This document shows positions 1,706 to 28,586 of a stretch of DNA of 64,000 bases, in pieces (positions within the stretch are counted from its first letter, which is position 1; every line of letters starts with the position of its first letter). The position numbers and the translations under genes were made by a program. Origin of the DNA: a virus. The notes below the pieces were generated by a model, which was given only the letters and a program-made list of their open reading frames with translations, was not told the origin of the DNA and ran no database searches. Where the stretch lies: the IMG/VR virus record IMGVR_UViG_3300025112_006940, positions 12,547 through 76,546 of that record; one strand, 5' to 3'.

Positions 1706-1712
1706 AATATGA

Positions 1713-4221: not shown

Positions 4222-4228
4222 AATATTT

Positions 4229-4304: not shown

Positions 4305-4398
4305 TATAGCCTAAGTGTGGATCAGGGTAAGAGGGGCATTTTTCAAACATGAGGAAGTTATATAAAGATTGGCCCCTCTAAAAAAATGAGGTTTTAAA

Positions 4399-4614
4399 AT
4401 GGCAGATCTTAAGATTAGTAGTTTATGTTTAGTGAATGGTAGTGGTGATTTACGTATGACTTCATAAGGAAAACGATACGCTGGTACAGTAGTTACAATT
4501 CTTAAGAAATGCAAAAGTGGTTTATATCTTGTTGAAGGAAAAGATGGAAAAACAGCAACATTTGCAAAAAGAAATTTAGATGAAATTATATCTTTAGGAA
4601 TTAATTCGGTATGA
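4399..4614 (+). pseudogene. Small ORF with in-frame TAA
   Basis: GAGG SD; TAA at 4465-4467, frame open to 4614. Confidence 0.5.
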
Positions 4615-4754
4615 CTAAATGACATTTATAATAATTGTTATAATATACAGTGCTATTATGATTGAATATGCAGATTGGCTAGAACATGTAAATTATTGGA
4701 AACGTTGGAATCGTGAAAAAGGTTTTATTCAATTTATCTTAGAAGGGAATAATA

Positions 4755-4946
4755 ATGGCTGATTCAAGTAGTTCTTTTAGTGGCATTGATTTTTTTGGAT
4801 TGTTAACAATTATATTTATAGTTCTTAAGTTGACAAATTATATTGCTTGGTCTTGGTTATGGATATTAGCACCGCTTTGGATTCCTGTTACGCTTTTGTT
4901 ATTATTTGTTATATTCGCAGCAATTATAGCGGCAGCATTAAAATGA
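4755..4946 (+). CDS. Small two-TM membrane protein
   Basis: LKLTNYIAWSWLWILAPLW motif common in phage membrane proteins. Confidence 0.75.
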   Translation: MADSSSSFSGIDFFGLLTIIFIVLKLTNYIAWSWLWILAPLWIPVTLLLLFVIFAAIIAAALK

Positions 4947-5081
4947 AAAACATGACAACAGATGAAAAATTCAAAGCTATTGGTAAAAAAAATAGCTGAG
5001 ATACAAAACACAAAATATGAAACTGATTTAGTTAAAATGGGACCAAGTCACTATAGATTAATTCAAAAAAAATGGAAAATT

Positions 5082-5157
5082 ACTCGGGTTGATTAGCGGC
5101 CAAATCGTCTGGCTTACATCCAGTTCATCGTGGGTTCGAGTCCCACCCCGAGTACCA
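5082..5157 (+). tRNA. tRNA-Val(TAC)
   Basis: ACTCGGG/CCCGAGT, CT-TAC-AT loop, TTCGAGT, ACCA. Confidence 0.85.
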
Positions 5158-5165
5158 AAAATTAA

Positions 5166-5242
5166 GGGCTGGTGGTGTCAATTGGCAAACATAGGAGATT
5201 CCAAACCTCTTGCTCCGGGTTCAAATCCTGGCCAGCCTGCCA
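5166..5242 (+). tRNA. tRNA-Trp(CCA)
   Basis: TT-CCA-AA loop, G73, CCGGG-TTCAAAT-CCTGG, CCA. Confidence 0.85.
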
Positions 5243-5290
5243 TAAAAAAATGAGAGTAACATAAATAGGTAAATGCATTCGTCTATACGT

Positions 5291-5367
5291 TGTCCGGATG
5301 TCAATTTGGTATCGGCGCCATCCTGATAAGGTGGAAATAGTGAGTTCAAATCTCACCCGGGCTACCA
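5291..5367 (+). tRNA. tRNA-Ile(GAT)
   Basis: CCATC-CT-GAT-AA-GGTGG, GTGAG-TTCAAAT-CTCAC, ACCA. Confidence 0.85.
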
Positions 5368-5373
5368 TATTAT

Positions 5374-5404
5374 ATAGTGAGTTCAATCCTCACCTGTCCT
5401 ACCA
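5374..5404 (+). pseudogene. tRNA 3' fragment (T-arm, acceptor strand, CCA)
   Basis: ATAGTGAGTTCAATCCTCACCTGTCCTACCA with no 5' half. Confidence 0.6.
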
Positions 5405-5410
5405 AAATAT

Positions 5411-5490
5411 ATGAACATACGCAATAATGGAAGCGCGGCCAATCTAAACATATTGGTGAAGTGTGGGTTCGAACCCCATTGTTCATACCA
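5411..5490 (+). tRNA. Atypical tRNA with 8-nt anticodon loop (CT-AAAC-AT)
   Basis: ATGAACA/TGTTCAT acceptor, CCAAT/ATTGG stem, GTGGG-TTCGAAC-CCCAT, ACCA. Confidence 0.7.
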
Positions 5491-5548
5491 ATTTTTTCAA
5501 AGGCTAATAATGACATAATTACTTAAATATTAAACAGGAGAAATAATT

Positions 5549-6094
5549 ATGTCAAAATGTATACTTTTCGGCCCAGAAGAAAAAACTCCATGGTATGAAA
5601 GAGCTTATTATTGGTTCTTAAGAACTGTATGGGATAACATCAAAATAACAGATCGACATATCAAATGGTTTTATCAAAGAAGAACAAGGGGATTTGATGA
5701 TACAGAATTATGGTCATTAGATCAACCATTAGCAAAGTACATACTTCCAAGATTAAAAGCTTTTAGAAATTATCCACTTCATGGATATCCAGGTCAATTA
5801 GATGAACCTGGATTGATTGAAGATAATCAAGATGGTGATCATCATGATCATAATTTCCAGATCTGGTTGGCAGTAATTGATAAGATGATTATTGCTTTTG
5901 AATACATTTTAAAAGGTGATGATGATGTTGAAACCGGATTTATTAGGGGTTGGGTTGATGATGATGGAAGATTTCATTCAGAAAAAGATGAAGAAAAGTG
6001 GCAAGCATATTTAAAAGAAGGCGAAAGACGCCAAAAAATAATAACTGAAGGCTTACAGTTATTTGCTAAGTATTTTCAAAATCTTTGGGATTAA
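5549..6094 (+). CDS. Conserved phage hypothetical protein
   Basis: AGGAG SD; RGFDDTELWSLD...GLQLFAKYFQNLWD pattern. Confidence 0.8.
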   Translation: MSKCILFGPEEKTPWYERAYYWFLRTVWDNIKITDRHIKWFYQRRTRGFDDTELWSLDQPLAKYILPRLKAFRNYPLHGYPGQLDEPGLIEDNQDGDHHDHNFQIWLAVIDKMIIAFEYILKGDDDVETGFIRGWVDDDGRFHSEKDEEKWQAYLKEGERRQKIITEGLQLFAKYFQNLWD

Positions 6095-6244
6095 GAGGTT
6101 TTTATGTCTAATTGGGCATTTACTAATGAGGATTTTCAGGGGCAGGCAAATATATTAAAAGATAGTATTTTAAATTGCTTATTTAATGAATGATCACTTA
6201 ACAATAAGTGCTGTTAAATTAGTAGAAGATAAAGAAGAAAATAA

Positions 6245-6320
6245 TGCGGAGTAGAGAAACGGCCATCTCACGATCCTCATAAGGTCGGGATAGCAGGTTC
6301 AACTCCTGCCTCCGCTTCCA
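6245..6320 (+). tRNA. tRNA-Met(CAT), initiator-like
   Basis: 1-72 mismatch, A11-U24 D stem, CT-CAT-AA loop; lacks the three G-C anticodon-stem pairs. Confidence 0.8.
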
Positions 6321-6618: not shown

Positions 6619-7590
6619 ATGAAATCACATATTGATAATTTTTGTGGTGGTAATTTCAGCAACTGGTTAGAAGTTAATCTTATTGAGCATTGTAATGGCT
6701 CTTGTTCATGGTGTATAGAAAAAAATGGTTTTCACCCAAAGCAAAAAGTTGAGTGGCATATTTTAGTTGACAAAATATTAGAAACAAATGCAACTAATAT
6801 AATCCTTCTCGGCGGCGAACCAACCCTCCATCCACGACTACAAGAAATTATAGAACGTCTATCAAATGCAGGAAGAAAAGTTTATGTTACCACGAATGGT
6901 GTAATGTTAACATCAAAATGGGTAAGAAAAAATCTTGTAGGGTTAGCCGGTATTAATATTTCAATTCATCATTATGACCTTCCAAATAATAAGATAATTA
7001 CAGGTGTCCATTTAGGCTATATAGATTTATATGATTCCATAAAGCAATTGCAAATAATGGGTAGTTCTATTAGATTAAATTGTAATTGTATTGTGGGGTA
7101 TATTGATAGTAAAGCTCAGTGCATGAAATATATTCAATTTGCAAAAGCTCTCGGAATAAACTCTGTAAGATTTGCAGAACTTAAATTAGATAACGAAAAT
7201 TTTGTTGATTTAGCTATTGAGTTTAATTATGAATATGGTTTAAATGATGATCCTTTTTTATTAGGATGTAATAAGAATTGTAGAATAGATGATGTTGATA
7301 TAAACTTTAGACAAATGTGTGGTTTACAAACAAGTAAAAGAGTTTTGCCAATCAATCCAGAACAAAGTCAAGAAAAATCAGTTTTATATTATGATGGTAA
7401 AATCTATGATGGATGGCAAACAGTAAAAAAGGAGGAGATTGTGGATGATAAAGAATTGTTACAGCTTATGGAAGATGTTAAAAGTGGTAGAGTTTCAGCT
7501 AAAATTGCTGCAATGAAAATAGCTAGAACAATGGGCAATACAAAAATTGTTGAAGTATCCAATAATGATAGTATGGGCTGTCGATATTAA
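6619..7590 (+). CDS. Radical SAM protein
   Basis: CNGSCSWC (CxxxCxxC), LGGEPTL, TTNG motifs. Confidence 0.92.
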   Translation: MKSHIDNFCGGNFSNWLEVNLIEHCNGSCSWCIEKNGFHPKQKVEWHILVDKILETNATNIILLGGEPTLHPRLQEIIERLSNAGRKVYVTTNGVMLTSKWVRKNLVGLAGINISIHHYDLPNNKIITGVHLGYIDLYDSIKQLQIMGSSIRLNCNCIVGYIDSKAQCMKYIQFAKALGINSVRFAELKLDNENFVDLAIEFNYEYGLNDDPFLLGCNKNCRIDDVDINFRQMCGLQTSKRVLPINPEQSQEKSVLYYDGKIYDGWQTVKKEEIVDDKELLQLMEDVKSGRVSAKIAAMKIARTMGNTKIVEVSNNDSMGCRY

Positions 7591-12239: not shown

Positions 12240-14102
12240 TTGGATATTTCACAACAAATTTTATCTGATATTACAGTACATATGAAATATGCTAAATATT
12301 TATTAGAACTTAACAGAAGGGAAACATGGGAAGAAATAGTATATCGTAATAAAGAGATGCACAAAAAAAAGTTTAAGCATTTAGGTTTAGATTTTTTAAA
12401 AATGATTGATAACGCTTATGAATTTGTTTATCAAAAAAAGATTTGCCCATCCATGAGAAGTATGCAATTTGCTGGAAAACCAATTGAAATTTCTCCAAAT
12501 AGAGTTTACAATTGTGCCTATCTTCCTATAGATGATTATAGGGCGTTTGGTGAAATAATGTTTCTATTATTAGGTGGGACAGGAATTGGCTATTCTGTAC
12601 AAAAGCATCATGTTGAAAAATTACCAGAAATTAGAAGACCTACAAAAAAACGTAGATTTTTAATTAGCGATTCAATTGAAGGATGGGCCGATGCAATTAA
12701 GGCATTAATGAAAGCTTATTTTTCTGGCAAATCTTTGCCAGTATTTGATTTTTCTGATATTAGAGTAAAAGGCGCAGCATTGATAACAAGTGGTGGTAAA
12801 GCACCTGGGCCAGAACCATTAAAGGATTGTTTGCATAATCTTAAAAAAGTTTTTGATAGAAAGCATGATGGCAATCAATTATCTACACTTGAAGCTCATG
12901 ATATGGTATGTTATATTGCCGATGCTGTTCTAGCAGGCGGGATTAGAAGGGCTGCATTAATATCTTTATTTTCTATGGATGATGAAGAAATGGCAGCATG
13001 TAAATTTGGAAATTGGTGGGAAGAAAATCCACAAAGAGGTAGGTCAAATAATTCTGCATGCATTGCAAGACATAGAATTAAAAAATATGAATTCAAAAAT
13101 TTATGGAAAAAAATTGAAAAATCTAATGCAGGCGAGCCAGGAATATATTTTACAAATGATATAGAATGGGGGACAAATCCATGTTGTGAAATTGCGTTAA
13201 GGGCATTTCAATTTTGTAATCTTACAGAAATTAATGTATCTAATGTAGAATCACAAGAAGACTTAAATGAAAGGGCAGCAGCGGCAGCATTTTTAGGTAC
13301 ATTACAAGCATCATATACAGATTTTCATTACCTTAGAGATATATGGAAAAGAACAACTGAAAAAGATGCATTAATTGGCGTTGGAATGACTGGCATAGCA
13401 AGTAAGAAAATATTTGATTTTTCTTTAGAGAAAGCTGCCGATATAGTCAAATCTACTAATAAAGAAATTTCAAAATTAATAGGTATTAATGAAGCTGCAA
13501 GAATGACTTGTATAAAACCATCTGGAACATCATCATTAGTATTGGGTTGTTCTTCTGGGATACATGCATGGCATAATGATTATTACATAAGAAGAATAAG
13601 AGTAGGAAAAAATGAAGCAATTTATTCGTATCTTTCTATTTATCATCCAGAGTTATTAGAGGATTGTTTTTTTAAGCCTAAAATAGATGCTGTTATTTCT
13701 ATCCCGCAAAAGGCACCAGATTATTCAATATATAGAACGGAAAATGCAATTGATTTATTAGAAAGAATAAAATATTTTCATGAAAATTGGATTGATTCAG
13801 GGCATTCACAAGGAAATAACAGTCATAATGTTTCTGCAACAGTATCTATAAAAAATGAAGAATGGGATAACGTTGGTGAATGGATGTGGAAAAATAGAAA
13901 GCACTATAATGGTTTAGCATGCTTGCCATTTGATGGAGGTTCATATGTTCAAGCCCCATTTGAAGATTGCGATAGCATGACTTTTGATAAATTATTTTCA
14001 AAATTACATGAAATAGATTTGACAAAAGTAATTGAAATGAATGATAATACAAATTTAAAAGGTGAATTAGCTTGTTCTAGCGGTGTTTGCGAAATAGTTT
14101 AA
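12240..14102 (+). CDS. nrdJ: Class II (AdoCbl-dependent) ribonucleotide reductase
   Basis: PSMR, YNCAY, RRAALISL, TNPCCEI, CNLTE, KPSGT, C-terminal CSSGVCEI; no beta subunit adjacent. Confidence 0.88.
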   Translation: MDISQQILSDITVHMKYAKYLLELNRRETWEEIVYRNKEMHKKKFKHLGLDFLKMIDNAYEFVYQKKICPSMRSMQFAGKPIEISPNRVYNCAYLPIDDYRAFGEIMFLLLGGTGIGYSVQKHHVEKLPEIRRPTKKRRFLISDSIEGWADAIKALMKAYFSGKSLPVFDFSDIRVKGAALITSGGKAPGPEPLKDCLHNLKKVFDRKHDGNQLSTLEAHDMVCYIADAVLAGGIRRAALISLFSMDDEEMAACKFGNWWEENPQRGRSNNSACIARHRIKKYEFKNLWKKIEKSNAGEPGIYFTNDIEWGTNPCCEIALRAFQFCNLTEINVSNVESQEDLNERAAAAAFLGTLQASYTDFHYLRDIWKRTTEKDALIGVGMTGIASKKIFDFSLEKAADIVKSTNKEISKLIGINEAARMTCIKPSGTSSLVLGCSSGIHAWHNDYYIRRIRVGKNEAIYSYLSIYHPELLEDCFFKPKIDAVISIPQKAPDYSIYRTENAIDLLERIKYFHENWIDSGHSQGNNSHNVSATVSIKNEEWDNVGEWMWKNRKHYNGLACLPFDGGSYVQAPFEDCDSMTFDKLFSKLHEIDLTKVIEMNDNTNLKGELACSSGVCEIV

Positions 14103-14143: not shown

Positions 14144-14398
14144 ATGAATGAAACAACAATTCGTCGTAGCTACTTAACTCCTAAATTTGATGTTAGGCCA
14201 GCTAAAAAAGAAGTAAAAAAACCAGGCTTATTTTTTGAAGATAGGGTAGAAAATCTTGCTAAAAAATATAAGACAATTGATGAAATATGGAAACATATGA
14301 CATTAGGGCAAGTATCACGATATAGTACAATAGGTCCAAAGATTTTTTTAGGAACAAAGTTAATTTACGATGAATCAACAGGAGAAACTTTTGTATGA
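14144..14398 (+). CDS. Hypothetical protein
   Basis: ORF coupled to the dCMP deaminase gene. Confidence 0.55.
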   Translation: MNETTIRRSYLTPKFDVRPAKKEVKKPGLFFEDRVENLAKKYKTIDEIWKHMTLGQVSRYSTIGPKIFLGTKLIYDESTGETFV

Positions 14399-14877
14399 TG
14401 ACTATCTTAGAGGATTTAGAACAAATTCTAGATTGCTATTGTGATAATAGTAGATTAGAATTTGAAGAAGTTTTTATTTTATTTACTAAGATACTTTCAT
14501 ATAGAAGCAGTTGTGCAAAAACAAAACAAGCAGCATTACTTGTTAATAATAACAGAGTAATTTCAATTGGTGTAAATGGGCCGCCATCTGGTGGAATAAA
14601 TTGTATAGCAGATGGCGGCGAAGAAGTATGCGGAAAAGATCTTTCAGGTAGTTGCTTAGAAGGGATTCATGCCGAACAAAATTGTCTTGGATATGCATCA
14701 AGATATGGAATAAGAACTGACAATTGTAAATTGTATGTAACAATGACGCCTTGTATAAATTGCGCCAAACTTATTATAGCTGCTGGAATTGAAGAATATA
14801 TTTACATTGATGATTATAGAATAACTGAAGGCATAGATTTTTTAAATAATCATGGTATTAAAACAAGAAAAATTTAA
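14395..14877 (+). CDS. dCMP deaminase
   Basis: RSSC, GVNG, HAEQN, PCINC zinc motifs. Confidence 0.92.
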   Translation: MMTILEDLEQILDCYCDNSRLEFEEVFILFTKILSYRSSCAKTKQAALLVNNNRVISIGVNGPPSGGINCIADGGEEVCGKDLSGSCLEGIHAEQNCLGYASRYGIRTDNCKLYVTMTPCINCAKLIIAAGIEEYIYIDDYRITEGIDFLNNHGIKTRKI

Positions 14878-14885
14878 GGAGAGGC

Positions 14886-15917
14886 ATGCCAAGAGAACTT
14901 GAGACAATAGAAGATATGTATATAAATTGTATATATAGAGTATTTGGGGGCAATAAAATAGATGCTGTTACAGATCCTTCATCAATTACATATGGTAAAG
15001 CAAGTAGGGAACGAATAGGATTAAGCTATAAAATAGAAAATCCATTAAGCAGGATAATTTTAAACCCAGCTAGAAAATTTAATATATTGCAAGTTATGGG
15101 TCATTTTTTATGGATTATGAAAGGTGATAATATTCTAAAAAATGTTAGTTATTATAATCCTAAGGCCTCTGCACTTTCAGATGATGGTATAACACATAGA
15201 GCTGCATATGGTGAAAGATTGATGTTTTGTAGTAATGGCAATGGTGGAATAAAAATTGATCAACTGAAAAATGTTATAACTAGACTGAAAATGGATTTAC
15301 AATCAAGGAGAGCATTTGCTACTATATATAATCCAGTAATTGATAGCTGTTGTATGCAAACAAATGATTTTCCATGTACGATTGGTTATCAATTTTTAAT
15401 TAGAAATAATAAGCTTGATATGATATGTTTTATGAGATCTCAAAGTGTTTTATTTGTAATGCCATATGATGTTTTTATAAATACAATGCTTCAAGAATAC
15501 ATGGCAAAAAGATTAGGGGTGGAAATTGGAAATTATTATCATACGGGCGGAAGTTTTCACTTTTTTGAAAATGAAACTAAGTTTGCAGAAAAAATTATAG
15601 AAGCTGATTATATTATTCCTGAAAATTTTTCAATGCCAAAAATGTATGATAATGTATTAGATGGTTTAAATCATGTATTAGAACATGAAACATTAATCAG
15701 GGAATCTGCAGTAGCAGGCTCTTATATTCATCTTCCAGATGATCATGCAGATGAATATGGGAAATATTGGGGCGATATTATACGACTCTTAGAAATATAT
15801 GCTATAGATAAAATAGAAAAAGATATATCTGAACATATAAGAAAAACATATGAAAGAAAGGTATTGATAAAAAAATTACATCCAACATATCAAGCTGCAT
15901 TGGAGATTTTAGAATGA
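14886..15917 (+). CDS. Thymidylate-synthase-fold pyrimidine-modifying enzyme (probably dCMP-specific)
   Basis: AYGER, SRRA, PCT, MRSQS....PYD, GSFH; Asp at the E. coli ThyA N177 position. Confidence 0.85.
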   Translation: MPRELETIEDMYINCIYRVFGGNKIDAVTDPSSITYGKASRERIGLSYKIENPLSRIILNPARKFNILQVMGHFLWIMKGDNILKNVSYYNPKASALSDDGITHRAAYGERLMFCSNGNGGIKIDQLKNVITRLKMDLQSRRAFATIYNPVIDSCCMQTNDFPCTIGYQFLIRNNKLDMICFMRSQSVLFVMPYDVFINTMLQEYMAKRLGVEIGNYYHTGGSFHFFENETKFAEKIIEADYIIPENFSMPKMYDNVLDGLNHVLEHETLIRESAVAGSYIHLPDDHADEYGKYWGDIIRLLEIYAIDKIEKDISEHIRKTYERKVLIKKLHPTYQAALEILE

Positions 15918-17029
15918 CTCATGAATTAATGGCAGGAAATTTATGGACTTTTGACTATCTTGTTGCTTGCAAAAAATTAAATGATGATAATCCAAAAGCT
16001 AAAATAGTGGAAATGTATGGATCAATTAAAGGATTAGATCCAATTGGTTCTGCTAGACCAGATTCAAGATTACCCTTAGTTGCTAAAAAAGATTTTGAAG
16101 CATACGTTAGCAAGGCAATTACATATGGAATTGAAATTAATTACACTCTTAATATTTCATGTATTGGTGAATTGAGTGAATTAGAAAAAAATGAATTAAA
16201 AATTGCAGATTTTTTACGTTATATAGAATTTTATGGTGTAAAAAGAGTTACAGTAGCACATCCATTGATAGCTCAATTAGTAGCAAAATATACAGATATT
16301 GCCGTTGAAATTTCTACAATTATGCATGTTGAAACTATTGGACAATTACAAAAATATAAAGAAATGTGCCCTAATGTAGATAAAGTATGCATGAATTTGT
16401 ATCGCAACAGAGATTTTAAATTTTTAAATCAATTCAAAAAAGAAGCCGATAAACTTGGTATCATAACAGAACTTATGGCAAATGAATTTTGTTCAATAGG
16501 AGGAATTCCTTGTTATGGACTTTACAGAAACTCATGTTATATGGTCCATTCCCATGGCGGAAACGATGAACTCAATTTTGAAGGCTATCCAATTAAAGGC
16601 CCTGGTGGATGTATCACTTCAAGAATACAAAGCCCAGCATCTTACCTTAAAGCACGTTTTATTCTTCCACAATGGTACGACAAATATTTCAACGAAACGG
16701 GGATATCGCATTTTAAGATTACTGGAAGAACTCATTCTATCGAAGATGTATTACCCATCGTTAAGTCCTATTCTAAGGGTACTTTTAATGGCAACTTAAT
16801 GGATTTATGGTTGCTAGATAAAGATCATGCTGATTTAAATATTGATTCAAGTTTATTAAAAGATTTTATAGATCATTGGATTGAAAATGCAGATTTTCCA
16901 TGTGATAAAATGTGTGGAATAAATTGTCAAATATGTGATGATGCATTTAAAGAAATCTGCCCAGATATTCCATTGTATCGCCCAAAACTTATTCATAGCA
17001 TTGATGAAAAAATAGGAATTGAAAAATGA
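15914..17029 (+). CDS. Peptidase-U32-family Fe-S hydroxylase-like protein
   Basis: INYTLN, EISTI, NEFC...C...C...C, FKITGR, C-terminal CxxxCxxxCxxC. Confidence 0.82.
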   Translation: MTHELMAGNLWTFDYLVACKKLNDDNPKAKIVEMYGSIKGLDPIGSARPDSRLPLVAKKDFEAYVSKAITYGIEINYTLNISCIGELSELEKNELKIADFLRYIEFYGVKRVTVAHPLIAQLVAKYTDIAVEISTIMHVETIGQLQKYKEMCPNVDKVCMNLYRNRDFKFLNQFKKEADKLGIITELMANEFCSIGGIPCYGLYRNSCYMVHSHGGNDELNFEGYPIKGPGGCITSRIQSPASYLKARFILPQWYDKYFNETGISHFKITGRTHSIEDVLPIVKSYSKGTFNGNLMDLWLLDKDHADLNIDSSLLKDFIDHWIENADFPCDKMCGINCQICDDAFKEICPDIPLYRPKLIHSIDEKIGIEK

Positions 17030-18078
17030 ATGTTTTGATAATTCAACAATACAGTATGAGGTCTTATGAAAACAATGAATATCTATTTGATAAAGATGGA
17101 CATTCAGATACAATGCTTTCATTGATCAAAGGTGTTGATAAAGAAGATTACAATTTCACAATTGTTGTTCCTGATAATGTAAGAGGTGGATTAAAGGCCG
17201 TAAAAAAATATATAGATTTTTGGAAAATAAAAAGTAATGTAATGATTCTATGTAAAAAATTTGGTATTAACATTGATGAAGAAAGATCAGATTTTGATAG
17301 ACAATATTGGAAAAATGTTATTGAAGAAAACAATGTAGATTTAGTAATTAATATGAATGATGTTATTGCCCCAAATCTTGCAACGTTAAGAAGGTATTGC
17401 AGTAAAACATTTAAGATTTATACAATACTTGATCATATGCCATTTTATAAACATTCATGGCAACATCCTAATCATGGAAAAATTCACAGAATACTGGAAT
17501 CAATTGATGTATCAGATAGGGTATTTACATACTTCGAACATACGCAATCAATATTAAGTTATCTATCAAAAAGAGAAATAAGCCTAATTCCAGCATTTTC
17601 AACTGAATTTTTAAATAAATTTGCAATGAGAGATTTAACAAATTATTCAGAATTGCATGAACTTATAGATGAAAAACATGAAAAAACATTATTGGCATCA
17701 AGATTAACTGATAAAACAAAATATACACCTGAAGCAATTAAGCAACATTGTAACGCACGTAGCACTGATTTATTGATTTGTAATCCAAATGAATTAAACG
17801 AAAAATTTATAGATGATGCATTTAAAGATGCTGAATTCCCAAAATTAAAAACAAAAAATGATTTTTTAAAACTGCTTTCAAAATCTATGTATATGATTAA
17901 TACAATAGATCCAGAAGTAATTTTATCTTCATCATCATTGCAGGCAATTTATTATGCATGCGAATTAGAACCGTTTAGAAGATATGATAGAGATTATTTG
18001 ATGATTAAACAGTTTAAATTTATTAACAACTATTCAATAGAATATACACCAACAAAATTAAGGAGGTTATATTCATGA
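17026..18078 (+). CDS. Putative glycosyltransferase (GT-B-like)
   Basis: Size, Rossmann-like start MNVLII, VDLVINMN, SLQAIYYAC end; context in modification cluster. Confidence 0.45.
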   Translation: MNVLIIQQYSMRSYENNEYLFDKDGHSDTMLSLIKGVDKEDYNFTIVVPDNVRGGLKAVKKYIDFWKIKSNVMILCKKFGINIDEERSDFDRQYWKNVIEENNVDLVINMNDVIAPNLATLRRYCSKTFKIYTILDHMPFYKHSWQHPNHGKIHRILESIDVSDRVFTYFEHTQSILSYLSKREISLIPAFSTEFLNKFAMRDLTNYSELHELIDEKHEKTLLASRLTDKTKYTPEAIKQHCNARSTDLLICNPNELNEKFIDDAFKDAEFPKLKTKNDFLKLLSKSMYMINTIDPEVILSSSSLQAIYYACELEPFRRYDRDYLMIKQFKFINNYSIEYTPTKLRRLYS

Positions 18079-18614
18079 TGCCAATGATAGTACTTGAAGG
18101 TCCTGATTTTGCAGGAAAAAGTTTTTATGCAAAAAAATTAATGAAGTATTTGAGAAAACACTATAGACTTTTAGAAAGTAATATAACAAAAGAACTTGAA
18201 ATACCTAAAAAAGAATTCAATAAAACAATTCAGCTTATAGGACATCATAGCTATATCATATTAAGAGAATTACAAGATTCCCCCATAATTGCAATAAGGT
18301 TAGCGGTTTCTGATATAGTTTATTCAAACGTATTTAAAAGAAATCAAGATTTAAGTTGGATAAATTTAAAAAGAGATTTTCCAGATGCAAAATTTATTCA
18401 TTTGACTACTTCATGTTTTGATGTAATTAAAAAACGTCGTAAAAATAGAGAGGATTATACAAACGAAGAAGAAAATTTTGAAATATATAAAGAATATTAT
18501 CTTGCTTTTCCAAAACTTGGCATTGATTATTTAGAGCTAAATAATGATAGCTTTAAAAATACTGAAAGAAATATAGGGCAAATAATTAATTTTGTATTTT
18601 CGGAGGGATTATGA
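18075..18614 (+). CDS. dNMP (thymidylate-like) kinase
   Basis: IVLEGPDFAGKS P-loop, R..SDIVY. Confidence 0.85.
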   Translation: MMPMIVLEGPDFAGKSFYAKKLMKYLRKHYRLLESNITKELEIPKKEFNKTIQLIGHHSYIILRELQDSPIIAIRLAVSDIVYSNVFKRNQDLSWINLKRDFPDAKFIHLTTSCFDVIKKRRKNREDYTNEEENFEIYKEYYLAFPKLGIDYLELNNDSFKNTERNIGQIINFVFSEGL

Positions 18615-21600
18615 GTCAAATTGAAACATATACCCATCTTCATTGCCATTCATCTGGTTCATTAATGGATGGTGTTGCAAAACCTGCTGATAATGCTAAA
18701 CGTGCTGCAGAATTAGGAATGCAAGCAATTGCATTAACAGATCATGGAACTCTTGCAGGATTATTTGAATTTCAAAAAACATGCGAAGAAGTTGGGGTTA
18801 AGCCTATACTTGGCAATGAAATGTATATTGTAGATGATATGAATTCAGGCCCTATTTCAGATGAAGAAAGAGAAACATTATCAAGAGAACAAAGAAAAGA
18901 ATTACAAAGAACTAGAATGAGAACTTCTCATGTAATTTTATTAGCAGAAAATCAAAAAGGGCTTGAAAATCTTTATACATTGAATTATTATGCTAATAAA
19001 AATGGTTATTATTATCGTCCAAGAATTGATCTAAATTTACTTAGGGATCATCATGAAGGATTAATTGCAACAACTACTTGTGTTGCATCTAAAATAGCAA
19101 GATATTTTTTTAATGGAGATGAAAATTTAGCAATTAGGCATTTTGAAGATATGTTAGATTTATTTGGCGAAGATAAGTATTTCATAGAAATGCATCCTCA
19201 TGAAATTGATATGCAGCTTAATTATAACAGATTTTTAATTGATAAAATTAAATCAAAATACAAAGATGTTAAATGTATATTGGCAAATGATTCTCATTAT
19301 GCAAGACCTAACGATAATGAAGCACATAAATTTTTGTTAAGCATTACAACAGATGATATGGTTCCTGGCTGTAAAAATTTGTATGTAGCATCCGAAGAAG
19401 ACATGAGAAAATTTTGGCATGAAAATAATCATGGTAAATACATAGATGAAAAATATTTGAATGAAGCTATTGAAACAACAAAAGAAATTGCTACAAGATG
19501 TAATGCACGTATTGATATGGAATCATTAAAAGAGCCTGAATTTACATTGCCAGAAGGATGGGAGGGACATGACAATAAACATTACATGGGCCATATTTTG
19601 CAAAATGCCCTTAGGGATAAAAGAGATAAGGGGTTAATACCAGAAGATAGAGTTGACGAATATCTTGAACGTCTTAAATATGAATTTAATATAATTGCAG
19701 ATAAAGGCTATATAGATTACTTTCTTATAGTAATGGATTTTATAAAATGGGCTAAAGATAATGACATTCTAGTTGGGCCTGGACGAGGTTCTGCTGCTGG
19801 ATCATTATTATCATGGCTATTGGAAATAATTGAAGTAGATCCAATAAAATATGAATTATCATTTGATAGATTTTTAAATCCGTTGAGAAATAAGGCACCG
19901 GATATTGATACAGATATTGAAAAATACAGAAGAGAAGAAGTAAGGGATTATATTGCTAATAAATGGGGTGAAGCAAATATAGCACCAATTGGGGCATATG
20001 CAAGATATTCAGCAAATAGTTTATTTAGGGAGGTATGCAAAAATCTTGAATACGATTTTTCAGATGTAAATAAAGTTGCTAAAAATATAGATTCTTCAGG
20101 TGATGAATATAGGTCATTAAAAACATTTAAAGAAAATGTAAATGAAAAGTCAGTAATAAAGGCATTCATGGACAAAATTCCAAAAGAAGAAGCTGAACAA
20201 ATATATAGCTTAGTTGGTGCTATTGAAGGTAATTATAGAAATTTAAGTGTTGCTGCAGCTGGAACTATTATTTCGTCTAGACCGCTTTATGAAATTGTGC
20301 CTTTAAGGAAAACAAAAGATGATACAATCATAACTGAATGGGACGGCAGGGATCTTACAGATGCTAAGTATCTTAAAATTGATATGCTTGGAATTGCTAC
20401 ATTATCAATTGTTAAAAATGTAATGGATAGAGTTGGTATGACTATCAGAGAATTATATGATATGCCTTTATACATTGAAGATGTTAAAGATCCAGAAGAA
20501 AAGAAGATCTATGAAAAATGTTATGAAGAATTTAGAAAAGGTCATACAGAGGCAATATTTCAATTTGAATCAGGTGGAATTACTGAGTTAATGAAAAACA
20601 TTTCTCCAGATTCTATAAATGATATATCTGCTACAAATGCATTATACAGACCTGGTCCGTTAGCTACAGGCGCAGCAAGTAACTTCTATAAAAGAAAGAA
20701 CAAAAAGACTGATGTTTTTAAGAATGAATTTCATCCTACATTGTTTGATAACGTATTAAAGGAAACATATGGTCTTATAGTTTATGAAGAACAAATTACT
20801 GAAATGTTTAATTTATTAGGGCTTGATTATGGCGATGCAGATATATTGAGAAGAGGTATGGAAGAACATGACCAAGAAAAAACACAGCATTATCTTGACA
20901 AATTATTAGCAAAGCCAGAATCAGAATTACCATTTAGCAAGGCTGAAGTTAAACAAACATTTGAAAATATTCAAAGACATGAAGGCTATGCATTTAATAA
21001 ATCTCATTCATTATCATATGCGATTGTTGCTTTTTGGACAATGTACATGAAAGTGAAATACAAAAAAGAATTTTGCGAAGAGGTTTTAAATGACCATATT
21101 AATGATGATGGAAAATTACCAATGTATATTAACATGACATTAAATTGTTTTCCAGATTTGAAGTTAAGCATGGGTGATATTAACATGTTTTCAGATAAGT
21201 TTGTTATTGAAGATGGTCAACTTAAATTTGCATTAAATACTACAAAAGGTATTGGAAAAGCCTTAATTAAGAAATTGCTTAAGATGAAAAATGATGGTAA
21301 GGTTTGGGAAAATTTTCAAGATTTCTTTATGAATAGCAAAATTTCTGTTAACAACATCATTAATTTGGTAAAAATAGGAATATTTGATAATACTGATTTT
21401 GGTAATGGTAGAAATTATAATAGAAAAACATTAGTTGATATTATTGAGTTTTTAGAAATAATAAGAAGCGCAAAAGTAAAGGAAAAAAAGCCATTTTTTG
21501 AAAAACTTGGCATAGATAACATTGAAGGTATGTTTAATCATGATATCATAAAAAAATATATGTCTAATATTGGTGGAAATATAGATCAAAAAGATTACAG

Positions 21601-21985
21601 TGCAAGGGATCTTGCAATAATTGAAAATGATCTCATTGGCTTTAGATTAACTGGCGATAGTGATGAATTTATACAGGCTATAACTTCTGCAGGAGTTATG
21701 GCATGTGGTAACTGGAAATCTAAATTGGAACCTGTATGGGGCAAAATAACAAATGTGGATATGAAAAAGACAAAAAGAGGGCAACCATATGCAGTGGCAA
21801 AAATAACAGATAATGAAACATCTATAAGCTTAAAATTATGGTCTAATCAACTTAAAAAATATGGTGGGATGCTTATCAATGGAAATGTAATTGTAGTAAA
21901 TCTTTCAAAAGATAGGTTTGGTTATGCATTAGTAAATGCAAAGCATGAAGATACAATGTTTGATGAATTTTCTATGACAACATAA
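18611..21985 (+). CDS. dnaE: DNA polymerase III alpha subunit (family C)
   Basis: PHP HLHCHS/LTDHG, GPGRGSAAGSL, PDIDTD, KIDMLG, YAFNKSHS, C-terminal OB fold. Confidence 0.96.
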   Translation: MSQIETYTHLHCHSSGSLMDGVAKPADNAKRAAELGMQAIALTDHGTLAGLFEFQKTCEEVGVKPILGNEMYIVDDMNSGPISDEERETLSREQRKELQRTRMRTSHVILLAENQKGLENLYTLNYYANKNGYYYRPRIDLNLLRDHHEGLIATTTCVASKIARYFFNGDENLAIRHFEDMLDLFGEDKYFIEMHPHEIDMQLNYNRFLIDKIKSKYKDVKCILANDSHYARPNDNEAHKFLLSITTDDMVPGCKNLYVASEEDMRKFWHENNHGKYIDEKYLNEAIETTKEIATRCNARIDMESLKEPEFTLPEGWEGHDNKHYMGHILQNALRDKRDKGLIPEDRVDEYLERLKYEFNIIADKGYIDYFLIVMDFIKWAKDNDILVGPGRGSAAGSLLSWLLEIIEVDPIKYELSFDRFLNPLRNKAPDIDTDIEKYRREEVRDYIANKWGEANIAPIGAYARYSANSLFREVCKNLEYDFSDVNKVAKNIDSSGDEYRSLKTFKENVNEKSVIKAFMDKIPKEEAEQIYSLVGAIEGNYRNLSVAAAGTIISSRPLYEIVPLRKTKDDTIITEWDGRDLTDAKYLKIDMLGIATLSIVKNVMDRVGMTIRELYDMPLYIEDVKDPEEKKIYEKCYEEFRKGHTEAIFQFESGGITELMKNISPDSINDISATNALYRPGPLATGAASNFYKRKNKKTDVFKNEFHPTLFDNVLKETYGLIVYEEQITEMFNLLGLDYGDADILRRGMEEHDQEKTQHYLDKLLAKPESELPFSKAEVKQTFENIQRHEGYAFNKSHSLSYAIVAFWTMYMKVKYKKEFCEEVLNDHINDDGKLPMYINMTLNCFPDLKLSMGDINMFSDKFVIEDGQLKFALNTTKGIGKALIKKLLKMKNDGKVWENFQDFFMNSKISVNNIINLVKIGIFDNTDFGNGRNYNRKTLVDIIEFLEIIRSAKVKEKKPFFEKLGIDNIEGMFNHDIIKKYMSNIGGNIDQKDYSARDLAIIENDLIGFRLTGDSDEFIQAITSAGVMACGNWKSKLEPVWGKITNVDMKKTKRGQPYAVAKITDNETSISLKLWSNQLKKYGGMLINGNVIVVNLSKDRFGYALVNAKHEDTMFDEFSMTT

Positions 21986-22001
21986 GGGGAAGAATAACAA
22001 A

Positions 22002-22388
22002 ATGGATAGACTTGAGCAAATGTTTGAACAACAAAAATATCTACAAGAATATCTTGCAAGATATAAACCAGACGCAGCTTGTATTCCTGGTGCAGATGAA
22101 GAGGAAAAGTTTAAAAATATGATTTTATTGCTTATAAAAGAATGTACAGAAGTTTTAGATGAGATTAATTTTAAACCGCATAAATTATCTAAGATTAAGG
22201 TAAATAAAGATAAAATAGCAGAAGAGTTAGTAGATGTATTAAAATATTGGATGAATCTTGCATTATTAACAGGGTTAGATACTGATGATATATATGCCAT
22301 GTTTATAAAAAAATCATCGATAGTTTTAGAAAGATTCAAAGAGGAATTAAAAAATGCTAAAAAAGGACACGGCCAAGTTAACAATTAA
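22002..22388 (+). CDS. All-alpha NTP pyrophosphatase (MazG/dimeric dUTPase/T4 gp56 dCTPase-like)
   Basis: ECTEVLDE and EELVDVLKY motifs. Confidence 0.8.
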   Translation: MDRLEQMFEQQKYLQEYLARYKPDAACIPGADEEEKFKNMILLLIKECTEVLDEINFKPHKLSKIKVNKDKIAEELVDVLKYWMNLALLTGLDTDDIYAMFIKKSSIVLERFKEELKNAKKGHGQVNN

Positions 22389-22896
22389 TGAAATTGAAGG
22401 AAGTAAGAAAGGAATGCTTGCAACAAAGATCGTTTATAATACAATTATAGAAAATCATTTTAAAATATGGTTCATATGCAATTCTCCAGGAAATAGATTA
22501 TTTTACATAACTATTAACGATGGCGTTGGAGGCACAGTAGCATTTACAGATTACAATATAGCATTTTCGGCGTTAAATAATAATCTATTTAAACCAGCGC
22601 TTTTAAAAGCATTTGGATCAGAAATAATATTATCAAGATTATCGCTTTTCTATGTTAAAGAAATGCTTAACGAAAATAATGTTGCATTTTTAGGAACAAT
22701 TTTGGTTAACCCTACTAGAGAATTTTTTACGCCAATATCATTACATTTTTTTAGTAAATTAGATTCTCTTAAGGTAAATGAATATGAAATTGATTTAGAT
22801 TTAGAAGGCGGCGACTATGTAGCATTAAAATATGATAAAGAAACTATGAGTTATTTATCACAGGAAAATGATGATTATCTAGATTTATTAGTATGA
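22354..22896 (+). CDS. Hypothetical protein
   Basis: Long ORF in operon. Confidence 0.6.
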   Translation: MLKKDTAKLTINEIEGSKKGMLATKIVYNTIIENHFKIWFICNSPGNRLFYITINDGVGGTVAFTDYNIAFSALNNNLFKPALLKAFGSEIILSRLSLFYVKEMLNENNVAFLGTILVNPTREFFTPISLHFFSKLDSLKVNEYEIDLDLEGGDYVALKYDKETMSYLSQENDDYLDLLV

Positions 22897-26075: not shown

Positions 26076-26695
26076 TTGATAAAAAAGCAGCTAAGGCTGT
26101 TGATCAAGCAATAAAGGTTTTAAATAAATACATACTTGAGTCTGATAAAATTTCAAATGAAAGAAAAGATCAGGTTAACAATGTATTAGAAGTTTTAGGT
26201 GAGAGGTTATTTACTGCACCGGCTTCAACAAAAACTGCAATGCATTCAGCATATCCTGGCGGATTGATTGTTCATTCATTAGCAGTAACAAGGAGAATAT
26301 TTGATTTATGCGGCGCATTTGAGGTTTCAGAAGAAGATGTGCCGCATGACTCAAAAGTAATTGTTGGTTTATTCCATGATATTGGAAAAATAGGAACATA
26401 TGATGGAATACCTCAATATATGCCAGAAGAATCAGAATGGCATAGAACCAAACTTGGCCAAATATATAATTACAATAAAAATCTTGATGATGCACTTACA
26501 CATGCTCAAAGATCAGCAAGATTATTAGGGCAATGCGGATTGATTTTAACTGATCAAGAATATGCATCAATATTGATTCATGATGGAATTTATATTGAAA
26601 CAAATAAATCAAGAGAAGCTATGTATACTAAAATTAAATTAGCGAGAATTGCACATTTTGCTGATTCATGGGTTGCTTTACAGGAGGATATTTAA
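26072..26695 (+). CDS. HD-domain phosphohydrolase
   Basis: APAS...H.AYPGGL..HS, LFHDIGKIG, HDG, HFAD. Confidence 0.9.
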   Translation: MIDKKAAKAVDQAIKVLNKYILESDKISNERKDQVNNVLEVLGERLFTAPASTKTAMHSAYPGGLIVHSLAVTRRIFDLCGAFEVSEEDVPHDSKVIVGLFHDIGKIGTYDGIPQYMPEESEWHRTKLGQIYNYNKNLDDALTHAQRSARLLGQCGLILTDQEYASILIHDGIYIETNKSREAMYTKIKLARIAHFADSWVALQEDI

Positions 26696-26696
26696 T

Positions 26697-27497
26697 ATGA
26701 AACTTACATTCGTAGGTTGTGGTTCTGCATTTAATAAGTTAAGTCTTCAAAGCAATATGCTTTTAGAAGCTGAGTCTGGTAAAAAAATGCTTATTGATTG
26801 TGGTTCTTATGCGCATATAGGATTATTATCTGCATTAGGGATTAATGAAACAAATTATGCAGATGAAATTGATTCTATTTATATTTCACATCAACATGGA
26901 GATCATATTGATGGGTTAGAAGAAATTGCATTTTGCACATATTTTAATCCTAATGCTCCAAAAATTGCACTTTATTGCGAGCAATATCTAATGCATAGAA
27001 TTTGGGATGAAAGTCTTAAAGGTGGATTAGGATCTGTTCAAGGCAAAGTAATGCATCTTACAGATTATTTTGATTGTAGGCCATTGAATGTTAATGTTAT
27101 AAATCAATGGGAGGGAATTAATTTTGAATTAGTTCAAACACTTCATGTGATGAATGGATTTGAATTTGTTCCAAGCTATGGTTTAATGATAAAAGAAGAA
27201 AAGGTAAATGCTAAAAATATATTTTTAACAACAGATACACAACATTGCCCAAATCAAATTCAAGATTTTTATGATATGGCAGATGTTATATTTCATGATT
27301 GTGAAACAGCACCTTATTTTTCTGGTGTTCATGCCCGCTATGATGAATTAAAAACGCTGAATAAAGAAACAAAAAAGAAAATGTGGTTATATCATTATCA
27401 ACCGGAACCACCACAAATGAAAACTGCAAGAGAAGATGGTTTTAGAGGACTAGTTACAAGAGGCCAAAGTTTTAAGTACGAGGTGAAAAATGAGTGA
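26697..27497 (+). CDS. MBL-fold hydrolase, Apyc1-like (anti-Pycsar cyclic-NMP phosphodiesterase)
   Basis: GCGSAF, LIDCG, SHQHGDHIDGLEE, WDESLKGGL, LTDYF, FHDC, GVHA..DEL, LYHY. Confidence 0.8.
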   Translation: MKLTFVGCGSAFNKLSLQSNMLLEAESGKKMLIDCGSYAHIGLLSALGINETNYADEIDSIYISHQHGDHIDGLEEIAFCTYFNPNAPKIALYCEQYLMHRIWDESLKGGLGSVQGKVMHLTDYFDCRPLNVNVINQWEGINFELVQTLHVMNGFEFVPSYGLMIKEEKVNAKNIFLTTDTQHCPNQIQDFYDMADVIFHDCETAPYFSGVHARYDELKTLNKETKKKMWLYHYQPEPPQMKTAREDGFRGLVTRGQSFKYEVKNE

Positions 27498-28509
27498 ATT
27501 AATTGTTGAAGTTTGTAAAATAGATGAAATAAGATCACATAGTAATGCAGATAAATTAGAAATTGCTATAGTGAAGGGGTGGTCTGTTATTACACAAAAA
27601 GGAAAATATAAGGCTGGAGATCTAGTTGTCCATGTTCCCCCAGATACGATTCTTACTGAAGAACTTTCAGAACAGCTCGAAGTTACAAAATACCTTTCTA
27701 AGCAAAGAGTAAAGGCTGTAAGATTACGTGGTGAAATGAGTTTTGGTTTAATATTTGAGCCACCACTTGGGCATCATCAAGAAGGTACGTCAGTTGTAGA
27801 TTTTTATAAAATGAGAAAATGGGAGCCACCTGAAGAATCTATTCAAGGTGATTCAGAAGTAGATGCTACATTTTTTGTTAAATACACAAGCATTGAAAAC
27901 TATAGAAATTTTCCTTTGATGATTGCTGAAGGTGAAGATGTAATTATAACTGAAAAAATTCATGGAACAAATTCAAGAGTAGGATATTGTTTTGATACTA
28001 AGGCGCAAGAACCTATTTTCATGATTGGCTCTCATAACAGACGAAGAAAAATTGATGTTGAGAGCTTATATCATAAACCATTAACTGATAATGTAAAATC
28101 ATTGCTTAAACAATTATATGATAGCTGGGACAATTGTGCAGCAGTAATTTTATATGGCGAAATTTATGGACGTGGTATTCAAGATTTAGGTTATGATATA
28201 GAACATTCTTTTGCTGCATTTGATATAAAGAGAGATGATCATTATTTTGATTATTCAGCAATGAAAGATTTATGTGATTCATTTGAAATTCCAACAGTTC
28301 CAGTATTATATCGTGGCCCATTTAGCAAAGAAATTTTAGAAAAATATTACATGGGCACTACAATAGTTGGAAATAATTCAAATCAAATTAGGGAAGGCGT
28401 TGTTGTTAAACCAACTTTTGAACATAGAAATGCTCGTGGTCGTAGAGTAATATTGAAAATGATAAGCGATGATTATCTCGTTAGAAAAGATGGTACAGAA
28501 AGACATTAG
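27490..28509 (+). CDS. RNA ligase, DRB0094 family
   Basis: N-terminal HSNADKLE OB-like module; TEKIHGTN, YGEIYG, FDI, REGVVVKP, LKMIS. Confidence 0.9.
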   Translation: MSELIVEVCKIDEIRSHSNADKLEIAIVKGWSVITQKGKYKAGDLVVHVPPDTILTEELSEQLEVTKYLSKQRVKAVRLRGEMSFGLIFEPPLGHHQEGTSVVDFYKMRKWEPPEESIQGDSEVDATFFVKYTSIENYRNFPLMIAEGEDVIITEKIHGTNSRVGYCFDTKAQEPIFMIGSHNRRRKIDVESLYHKPLTDNVKSLLKQLYDSWDNCAAVILYGEIYGRGIQDLGYDIEHSFAAFDIKRDDHYFDYSAMKDLCDSFEIPTVPVLYRGPFSKEILEKYYMGTTIVGNNSNQIREGVVVKPTFEHRNARGRRVILKMISDDYLVRKDGTERH

Positions 28510-28586
28510 CACGTGTATCCAAATTGGACAAAGGAAACGGACTGCAAATCCGTTCTGTGAGAGTTCGAGTCCCTCCGCGTGCTCCA
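28509..28586 (+). tRNA. tRNA-Cys(GCA)
   Basis: ACGGA-CT-GCA-AA-TCCGT, U73, CCA. Confidence 0.9.

Follow-up and report, generated by a model that had tools for sequence, protein, structure and literature searches.

A putative glycosyl-5-hydroxycytosine operon in an uncultured DnaE-type phage, with a U32 protein as a candidate oxygen-independent hydroxylase

Introduction

Glycosylated 5-hydroxycytosine is known to influence how sensitive phages are to restriction, CRISPR, and type IV defences. In phage RB69 and Acinetobacter phage DLP3, cytosine is replaced by the arabinosylated form of this base: a homologue of thymidylate synthase (TS; RB69 gp48, DLP3 gp80) makes 5-hydroxy-dCMP with flavin and O2, and gp46:47 acts as the first arabinosyltransferase (Lee et al., NAR 2026, PMC13326640). 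Published arabinosyl-5-hydroxycytosine clusters include RB69 gp45–gp55 plus gp3, HY126 Afh, Serratia LC53/92A1, Bas46/47, and Acinetobacter DLP3; the U32 protein of the RB69 cluster, gp50, is labelled a “sugar or heterocycle reductase” in Table 1 of that paper, from which the word U32 is absent (PMC13326640). Here, we analyzed an operon of similar content from an uncultured phage, located in a stretch of 64,000 nucleotides (“the window”) that forms the 3′ 64 kb of the 76.5-kb IMG/VR record IMGVR_UViG_3300025112_006940. The published Straboviridae clusters have reportedly also been covered by He et al. (Nat Chem Biol 2026) and Mahler et al. (Cell Host Microbe 2025).

Outside of these clusters, characterized U32 hydroxylases include RlhA (ho5C2501 of 23S rRNA), TrhP (ho5U34 of tRNA), and UbiU/UbiV (ubiquinone). 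These enzymes act independently of O2, with prephenate as a co-substrate according to work on TrhP and UbiU/V. A preliminary description of the window had named the RB69-group precedent of a U32 gene clustered with those for arabinosyl-5-hydroxycytosine, which the literature bears out (PMC13326640). It had also presented the operon as the strongest candidate for a new system, a claim that has to be given up, as glycosylated 5-hydroxycytosine pathways were published in 2025–2026 for several phage families.

Results

Gene content and proposed pathway of the operon

The operon (positions 14395–22388, Table 1) comprises, in order, genes for a dCMP deaminase, a TS homologue, a U32-family protein, a GT-B glycosyltransferase (ORF3), a Tmk-like kinase, a DnaE-type (family C) DNA polymerase, and a MazG-type pyrophosphatase. 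The four junctions between the TS, U32, glycosyltransferase, kinase, and DnaE genes are all 4-bp ATGA start/stop overlaps, and the polymerase is complete, with PHP, NTPase, finger, and HHH domains identified by Pfam. The five overlapping genes, the all-alpha pyrophosphatase behind them, and a separate trimeric dUTPase were all noted in the preliminary description and are confirmed here with exact coordinates; the dCMP deaminase gene directly upstream of the TS gene, itself joined to the preceding small ORF (orf84) by a 4-bp overlap, had been overlooked.

We lean towards reading this operon as a putative system for pre-replicative cytosine replacement, of the glycosyl-5-hydroxycytosine kind, in an uncultured DnaE-type phage. 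Hypermodification of cytosine in the DNA of this phage seems likely, and a 5-hydroxy rather than a 5-hydroxymethyl base reasonably probable. Family membership, active-site residues, gene order, and the conservation of the module across phages could all be established. The same gene families recur together in unrelated phages, as a neighbourhood search suggested in the preliminary description could confirm, and the gene set is thus not a chance neighbourhood. In JS09/RB69, the U32 (gp50), TS (gp48), glycosyltransferase (gp46:47), and Tmk-like kinase (gp45) genes lie side by side, and the match between the window and this RB69 core was counted in favour of the glycosyl-5-hydroxycytosine reading. 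The closest relatives came from one metagenome contig of 145 kb and three viral contigs, with U32 and DnaE proteins 66% and 42% identical to those of the window, respectively, and with the gene order methyltransferase, TS (RSQS type, see below), U32, kinase, GT4 glycosyltransferase, UDG, DnaE, and MazG.

In the proposed pathway, the MazG-type pyrophosphatase would convert dCTP to dCMP, which the TS-fold protein would hydroxylate at C5 to 5-hydroxy-dCMP, by analogy with the flavin- and O2-dependent RB69 gp48. The U32 protein could provide an alternative dCMP C5 hydroxylase, by analogy with RlhA, TrhP, and UbiU/V, that would be O2-independent and use prephenate. The Tmk-like kinase would then form the diphosphate and a host NDP kinase the triphosphate, the co-translated DnaE polymerase would insert the modified nucleotide, and the gp46:47-like GT-B enzyme would place a sugar from a host NDP-sugar onto the 5-OH in DNA. 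The dCMP deaminase, comparable to T4 cd, would feed the dUMP/dTMP supply as dCMP is drawn off, and together with the trimeric dUTPase would sustain dTTP synthesis. The base, the sugar, and all chemical steps of this pathway are proposals made from protein sequences and gene order.

The window has several features in common with the Straboviridae clusters: its TS-fold protein is of the cytosine-specific type and without Asp169, its glycosyltransferase is a GT-B enzyme of the gp46:47 family, and its U32 protein (36% identity) belongs to phrog_5757 as theirs do, with the exception of the Acinetobacter phages, which have no U32. A dCMP deaminase, a Tmk-like kinase, and an all-alpha NTP pyrophosphatase also occur in both. 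It differs from them in its replicase, DnaE-type instead of T4 gp43, in its gene order (TS, U32, glycosyltransferase, kinase), in its 343-aa MilA-like TS homologue, which belongs to another branch and has Ser rather than Asn at position 169, in its very divergent glycosyltransferase, and in having no arabinose-5-P isomerase, AfhE, or AfhF genes. Rhizobium phage RL38JI (Pootjesviridae, hexosyl-5-hydroxycytosine) likewise combines a TS-fold 5-hydroxy-dCMP synthase, a Tmk-like kinase, and glycosyltransferases, and draws its sugar largely from host UDP-hexoses; unlike the window, no U32 is listed in its cluster, its glycosyltransferases are from other families, and its TS homologue has D169N. Finally, the glucosyl-hydroxymethylcytosine pathway of T4 (gp42, gp1, gp56, alpha/beta-gt, cd) follows the overall logic proposed for the window: dCTP is removed, dCMP is converted by a TS-fold enzyme and phosphorylated by a kinase, the product is incorporated and then glycosylated on DNA, and a dCMP deaminase serves dTTP. 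In T4, however, gp42 has kept its folate-binding Asp and transfers a hydroxymethyl group, no U32 is present, and the glycosyltransferases are from other families.

A cytosine-type TS homologue without Asp169

The TS homologue is of the long, MilA-like form, and among solved structures it comes closest to that of MilA, a CMP hydroxymethylase (5b6d, E 8e-36). Individual residues were read from HMMER alignments (MilA, S. aureus TS), BLASTP (JS09 gp48), and a 12-sequence alignment. The catalytic Cys164, in the motif NDFPCT, aligned with the catalytic cysteines of MilA, S. aureus TS, and JS09 gp48 (E. coli C146). The protein displays both N177D (PYD195 against PFN177), a change that switches TS specificity from uracil to cytosine, and L143D (D161 against L143), and it retains the Ser167/Arg126-type pair that marks deoxy-specific enzymes and is Ala/Lys in MilA (Zhao et al., PMC5175136). 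Asp169, which contacts the pterin ring of folate in TS-type enzymes and is found in the folate-dependent hydroxymethylases (T4 gp42, MilA, SPO1 dUMP hydroxymethylase), is replaced by Ser (Ser187, motif MRSQS). The equivalent motif is MRSQN in JS09, RAND in MilA, and RSND, RSSD, or RSQD in other, D169-keeping viral homologues. Y209F is also present, as in the JS09/RB69-type enzyme.

The diagnostic residue of 5-hydroxy-dCMP synthases is D169N, on top of N177D and L143D/E (Lee et al., PMC13326640). Among close relatives of the window protein, residue 169 is Asn in P0003 and P0004, the two closest (54% and 45% identity, respectively), and Ser in L006, P0006, and P0007. In a quick maximum-likelihood tree, the window protein formed a clade with P0003/P0004 (RSQN) and L021 (RSQS) with 100% support. 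Taken together, this suggests that the TS homologue is probably a 5-hydroxy-dCMP synthase.

Several observations weigh against this assignment. Position 169 is Ser and not the Asn of the published signature, and hydroxylation by a D169S enzyme is itself conjectural. Within the wider RSQx clade of the tree, residue 169 switches several times between D, N, and S, and the validated Straboviridae enzymes are placed on a separate long branch that is not sister to the clade of the window protein; as a result, the case for 5-hydroxy-dCMP rests on a recurrent substitution. In addition, a nearby U32 gene is lacking for several RSQS/RSQN genes, one at the viral locus L038 and the others on a number of metagenome contigs, most of them short.

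The alternative of a T4-like hydroxymethylcytosine pathway would make the TS homologue a folate-dependent dCMP hydroxymethylase similar to T4 gp42 or MilA, with the glycosyltransferase coating 5-hydroxymethylcytosine and the U32 protein unrelated. This would be in line with MilA as the best solved relative, with L143D and N177D, which are common to hydroxymethylases, and with the conservation of D169 in most viral relatives of the wider clade. However, the residue that contacts folate is Ser in the window and the Asn of 5-hydroxy-dCMP synthases in its nearest relatives, Y209F is common to the RB69 type, and the glycosyltransferase belongs to a family that acts on 5-hydroxycytosine. Moreover, across 80 viral loci with TS homologues, U32 genes were detected ≤7 kb from the TS gene only for the RSQS type (L021–L023), while none of the D169-keeping homologues had a U32 gene within 7 kb. 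We thus consider a hydroxymethylase pathway unlikely, and retain 5-hydroxy-dCMP as the predicted product.

Two side observations concern TS genes. On three unrelated contigs, the gene immediately upstream of an RSQS-type TS homologue encodes a SAM (S-adenosylmethionine)-dependent methyltransferase (L006, 6157–6957; L113, 1–1104; L122, 5469–6941), the one in L122 being fused to a guanylate-kinase-like domain; as a speculation, these enzymes might O-methylate the 5-hydroxyl to give 5-methoxycytosine. Separately, a 46-residue remnant of the ThyA C-terminus is encoded at 2967–3104 of the full record (L005/G000), ~9.4 kb before the window start. It matches PF00303 positions 221–266 (E 6e-10) within a 52-aa open frame that has no upstream part, and appears to be what is left of a thyA gene that was lost or split; the TS homologue now encoded by this phage is of the cytosine type.

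Glycosyltransferase, kinase, pyrophosphatase, and sugar supply

The preliminary description had called the third overlapping gene, ORF3, a glycosyltransferase, and profile and structure comparisons both uphold this call. When compared to an alignment of 7 gp46:47-type proteins, ORF3 aligned over its full length (hhalign probability 86%, E 5e-6), albeit at an identity of only ~22% to the family. Its first 26 residues match JS09 gp46:47, with the common N-terminal motif SMRSYE..Y..DG, and the phrog_3891 match is also located at the N-terminus. The ESM Atlas model of the exact protein displayed TM-scores of 0.69–0.81 to GT4-type GT-B glycosyltransferases, and was used in place of an AlphaFold2 (AF2) model built from a 7-row alignment (pLDDT 44), of which only the N-terminal Rossmann-like part was confident. 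No relatives of ORF3 were detected in a word search of 5.8 billion proteins or by tblastn in isolated phages. Profile and model thus support ORF3 as a GT-B enzyme, a distant member of the gp46:47 (arabinosyltransferase 1) family, and a putative DNA 5-hydroxycytosine glycosyltransferase.

Kinase genes of phrog_761 also adjoin those for the glycosyltransferase and U32 in L006 and in G001 (L009), a complete phage, and the kinase of the window presumably phosphorylates the modified dNMP. The MazG-type protein is 52% identical to the homologue located behind DnaE in L006, and another homologue is found in the G001 module. As a trimeric dUTPase is already encoded in the window, a second dUTPase would be unnecessary, and the MazG/dUTPase_2-type enzyme is instead a candidate dCTPase.

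As the preliminary description had stated for the window, no sugar-nucleotide synthesis genes could be found: a Pfam scan of 30 ORFs detected none, and tblastn of the 76.5-kb record with RB69-type arabinose genes gave no match. CheckV puts the full genome at ~185 kb and the completeness of the record at only ~41%, so that such absences are weak evidence. Since arabinose-5-P isomerase, AfhE, and AfhF genes were all missing, the phage probably either uses a sugar other than arabinose or takes its sugar from the host. Phage-encoded NDP-sugar synthesis is not universal in these systems, RL38JI relying partly on host UDP-hexoses.

A radical SAM protein (PF04055) is encoded at 6619–7590, with BlsE (7vob, E 4.5e-8, N-terminal core only) as its best solved relative. 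BlsE is the cytosylglucuronate decarboxylase of blasticidin S synthesis. The phage protein might act as a tailoring enzyme on a sugar linked to cytosine, or the similarity might be a chance one between radical SAM cores. The related loci contained no homologue.

Sequence and fold of the U32 protein

The U32 protein is divergent, with a PF01136 score (Table 1) above the cut-off of 22.4 bits, while other family members reach up to 50 bits over nearly the whole profile. This phage family comprises 511 clusters at E ≤ 1e-30 among 1.84 billion representatives. In the window protein and ten relatives, cysteines 159, 193, 208, and 233 are invariant, along with a C-terminal C330-x3-C334-x3-C338-x2-C341 (Cx3-4Cx3Cx2C across the family), for a total of eight, i.e., enough for two clusters. 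The central group consists of C193 in NEFC, C208 in SCY..H, and C233, plus C200 here (202 in most other members).

The AF2 model of the protein is a TIM barrel (pTM 0.77), and its best Foldseek match in the PDB is 5d88, the U32 peptidase Mk0906 (E 1.5e-6), which is also the structural match given for RB69 gp50 by Lee et al. (PMC13326640). Among E. coli paralogues, RlhA was the best match (hhalign 69%, E 4.5e-5, 202 columns), through an alignment that spans the EF..G..C..CY..H signature and FK.GR. Searches of solved-structure sequences with the single protein or a profile returned no match, and no U32 subfamily was assigned by NCBIfam. None of ten long family members was a U32-chorismate mutase fusion; these included instead one intein and several DUF2621 tails. 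The family member P0075 (699 aa) is interrupted by an intein (Hint/intein splicing domains).

Overall, the phage U32 shares with RlhA, TrhP, UbiU, and UbiV the TIM barrel, the partly kept EF..G..C..SCY..H and FK.GR motifs, and conserved cysteines for a presumed Fe-S centre. It is however very distant from these proteins, with a different cysteine spacing and the extra C-terminal Cx3-4Cx3Cx2C, and its presumed substrate is a deoxynucleotide or DNA, whereas they act on RNA or a quinone.

Distribution and neighbours of the U32 genes

Using tblastn, a U32 gene 36% identical to that of the window (RB69ORF050c type) was detected in 222 T4-like phages. All 222 genes are ≥80% identical to that of JS09, and the hosts are Enterobacterales and Shewanella, with no Acinetobacter. 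The gp46:47 family was found in 349 phage records, 57 of which are Acinetobacter phages. Acinetobacter bacteria are strict aerobes, and the hosts of the U32-encoding phages are facultative anaerobes, a distribution that fits a U32 enzyme needed only without O2. In JS09/RB69, RB69ORF050c lies between the DNA polymerase and uvsX, in the company of an arabinose-5-P isomerase, a nucleotidyltransferase/kinase, a phosphatase, the 238-aa TS homologue, a 299-aa protein, and the Tmk-like kinase.

Beyond T4-like phages, U32 genes were found beside or near DnaE in L006, L009, L010, L014, and L017. Four small genomes, G001–G004, are DnaE phages of 41–49 kb estimated to be 91–100% complete, and each encodes MazG, the kinase, the glycosyltransferase, U32, and DnaE, with terminal repeats in G001 (IMGVR_UViG_3300011977_000018, loci L009 and L018–L020; L010, L014, and L017 are of the same kind). 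The gene set of G001 consists of a primase, an SSB, MazG, the phrog_761 kinase, a gp46:47-type glycosyltransferase (phrog_3891), U32, and DnaE. No TS fold was detected in G001–G004, with no PF00303 match in any of the four, and a six-frame TS-profile search of G001 with filters off returned a best E of 0.13 (positive controls reached 1e-75 or better, but were members of the profile alignment). The presence of U32 without any TS homologue in complete phages argues for a separate, O2-independent route.

Two phages, Virsaitis27 (Erwinia) and Thanatos-2 (Shewanella), have a gene for a type II chorismate mutase that overlaps the U32 stop codon (Table 1). The product of chorismate mutase is prephenate, and these adjacent genes thus point, indirectly, to prephenate chemistry for U32, matching the prephenate dependence of the RlhA/TrhP/UbiU/UbiV enzymes. 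The same slot behind U32 is occupied in JS09/RB69 by a 53-aa ORF (gp49) without a detectable chorismate mutase domain, and no CM_2 match, i.e., no chorismate mutase, was found in the 76.5-kb record.

A further large phage contig of interest is the 230-kb L011 (IMGVR_UViG_3300028591_000080), which encodes U32, a gp46:47-type glycosyltransferase, and an AfhE-like nucleotidyltransferase/kinase; the only TS homologue in the locus is a canonical ThyA (RSGD...N, ThyA C-terminus).

Candidate functions of the U32 protein

Based on its motifs and neighbours, we consider it about evenly balanced whether the U32 protein would be an O2-independent hydroxylase. Several points weigh against this function. 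RB69 gp48 alone yields 5-hydroxy-dC in E. coli (PMC13326640), which makes U32 dispensable in air. The spacing of its cysteines departs from the canonical CX6CX15CX3-4C that binds a 4Fe-4S cluster, in a loop that is poorly modelled by AF2, and the hhalign comparisons to TrhP (18%) and UbiU (4%) were non-significant. The correlation of U32 with the oxygen lifestyle of the host is not phylogenetically independent and involves few independent lineages. Separately, no link of U32 to 5-hydroxycytosine in DNA, nor the hydroxylase hypothesis itself, was found in the literature searched, the scope of which excluded He et al. 2026 (Nat Chem Biol), and this latter study may already assign a role to U32.

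U32 could instead be the obligate partner of the TS homologue in a two-component hydroxylase, in which the TS cysteine would activate C5 and U32 would give oxygen or electrons, e.g., through flavin reduction. The two genes overlap by 4 bp here, are adjacent in L006, and co-occur in all RB69-type clusters, and the eight invariant cysteines could hold two clusters. Yet the overlap says little about partnership because all five operon genes overlap, and U32 is found in complete phages devoid of any TS fold. In addition, TS homologues function in E. coli without U32, and DLP3-type Acinetobacter phages lack it (PMC13326640), so that we regard an obligate partnership as improbable. A joint requirement for TS and U32 had been implied by a co-expression assay in the preliminary description. 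The mechanism proposed there fits all tests with regard to the TS homologue, kinase, dCTP removal, DnaE, and glycosylation, but does not hold for U32 as an enzyme needed together with TS, since the published TS homologue makes 5-hydroxy-dCMP alone.

Even less probable, in our view, is a role of U32 in tailoring the sugar or heterocycle after hydroxylation. Beyond the reductase label of RB69 gp50 (Table 1 of PMC13326640), this would be consistent with the annotation of U32 as “UDP-arabinose biosynthesis” in the GenBank record of phage AlbertHofmann, and with U32 always being located beside glycosyltransferases. However, arabinose-pathway genes (arabinose-5-P isomerase, AfhE-like, AfhF-like) were not found alongside U32 in the window, L006, or G001, so that U32 is not tied to arabinose synthesis; DLP3 makes tri-arabinosyl-5-hydroxycytosine without it, and the adjoining chorismate mutases point to prephenate chemistry.

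Lastly, ordinary nucleotide metabolism without DNA modification (a TS producing dTMP, a dTMP kinase, a house-cleaning MazG, and a U32 acting on tRNA or rRNA) would be compatible with the surrounding ribonucleotide reductase, dCMP deaminase, and dUTPase genes, with the 15 tRNA genes of the phage, and with the RNA substrates of known U32 proteins, but is very unlikely given that, under established TS enzymology, N177D, L143D, and D169S do not allow dTMP synthesis (PMC13326640; PMC5175136), that a DNA-type glycosyltransferase is encoded mid-operon, and that unrelated phages have the same module beside their replicase.

Flanking genes and other features of the window

Table 1 Coordinates of the operon genes, associated genes of the window, and chorismate mutase genes of related phages
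Feature	Position	Strand	Evidence
Trimeric dUTPase	2299–2742	+	PF00692 E 4e-29
Conserved small ORF orf84 (84 aa)	14144–14398	+	Upstream of operon; 46% identity to ORF upstream of L006 cluster
dCMP deaminase	14395–14877	+	PF00383 E 4e-16; phrog_174 E 1e-36
TS-fold enzyme, putative 5-hydroxy-dCMP synthase	14886–15917	+	PF00303 E 1e-19
Divergent U32-family protein, putatively Fe-S, candidate O2-independent pyrimidine C5 hydroxylase	15914–17029	+	PF01136 25.6 bits; phrog_5757 E 3e-64
GT-B glycosyltransferase (ORF3), putative DNA 5-hydroxycytosine glycosyltransferase	17026–18078	+	No Pfam match; phrog_3891 E 7.5e-8
Tmk-like dNMP kinase	18075–18614	+	phrog_761 E 3e-12; PF02223 E 3e-5, under its cut-off
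DnaE-type (family C) DNA polymerase	18611–21985	+	PF07733 E 1e-74; PF02811, PF17657, PF14579
All-alpha MazG/dUTPase_2 NTP pyrophosphatase, candidate dCTPase	22002–22388	+	PF08761 E 1e-8; PF03819 E 3e-6; phrog_173
Conserved ORF after MazG	22354–22896	+	35% identity to same-position ORF in L006
Chorismate mutase	Virsaitis27 L130 6158–6502; Thanatos-2 L131 7134–7391		PF01817 E 1.7e-11 and 8e-8, above cut-off

The conserved ORF behind MazG had no match in Pfam, PHROG, or NCBIfam, and an Atlas search with it gave nothing informative. The small orf84 was considered as a hidden chorismate mutase but found no support, with no CM_2 match and a BLASTP E of 0.1 against the chorismate mutase of Virsaitis27. 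No kinship to RB69 gp51 was detectable for a small HAD-like ORF located upstream of the window, and a promoter and terminator scan yielded signals indistinguishable from shuffled sequences.

Just upstream of the operon, at 12240–14102, the window encodes a class II (B12-dependent, O2-independent) ribonucleotide reductase, which, as weak context, fits a phage replicating with or without oxygen. The tRNA genes were identified by ARAGORN at 386–6320, 28509–28586, and 41699–41790, one of which (5411–5490) was called with a four-base anticodon (aaac). An Apyc1-type anti-Pycsar protein of the metallo-beta-lactamase fold is encoded at 26649–27497 (PF23023, E 4.5e-26), with an HD-domain protein and an RNA ligase nearby.

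Discussion

While the glycosyl-5-hydroxycytosine kind of system is already known, new features here are the lineage and its replicase, a long-form TS homologue with D169S, a transferase that is very divergent, and the lack of sugar genes in the record. The window would place the pathway in phages without kinship to the T4-like and Rhizobium phages examined to date, coupled to a family C replicase.

The published hydroxylase depends on O2, which raises the question of how phages of gut and other anoxic hosts make the base. Complete phages with U32 but no TS fold, chorismate mutase genes adjacent to U32, and the absence of U32 from phages of a strict aerobe together yield a testable hypothesis of an O2-independent DNA-precursor hydroxylase. 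Tentatively, and with slightly more doubt than confidence, we propose that U32 may be the first DNA-directed, O2-independent, prephenate-using Fe-S hydroxylase, paired here with an O2-dependent TS-fold hydroxylase. If this is true, U32 would make 5-hydroxy-deoxypyrimidine nucleotides, or hydroxylate DNA directly, without oxygen. It would represent the sole hydroxylation route in the small DnaE phages that lack TS, and a new enzymatic route to 5-hydroxy-dC nucleotides. For the phage described here, with the TS-fold hydroxylase alongside, it would mean that DNA could be fully modified with or without oxygen.

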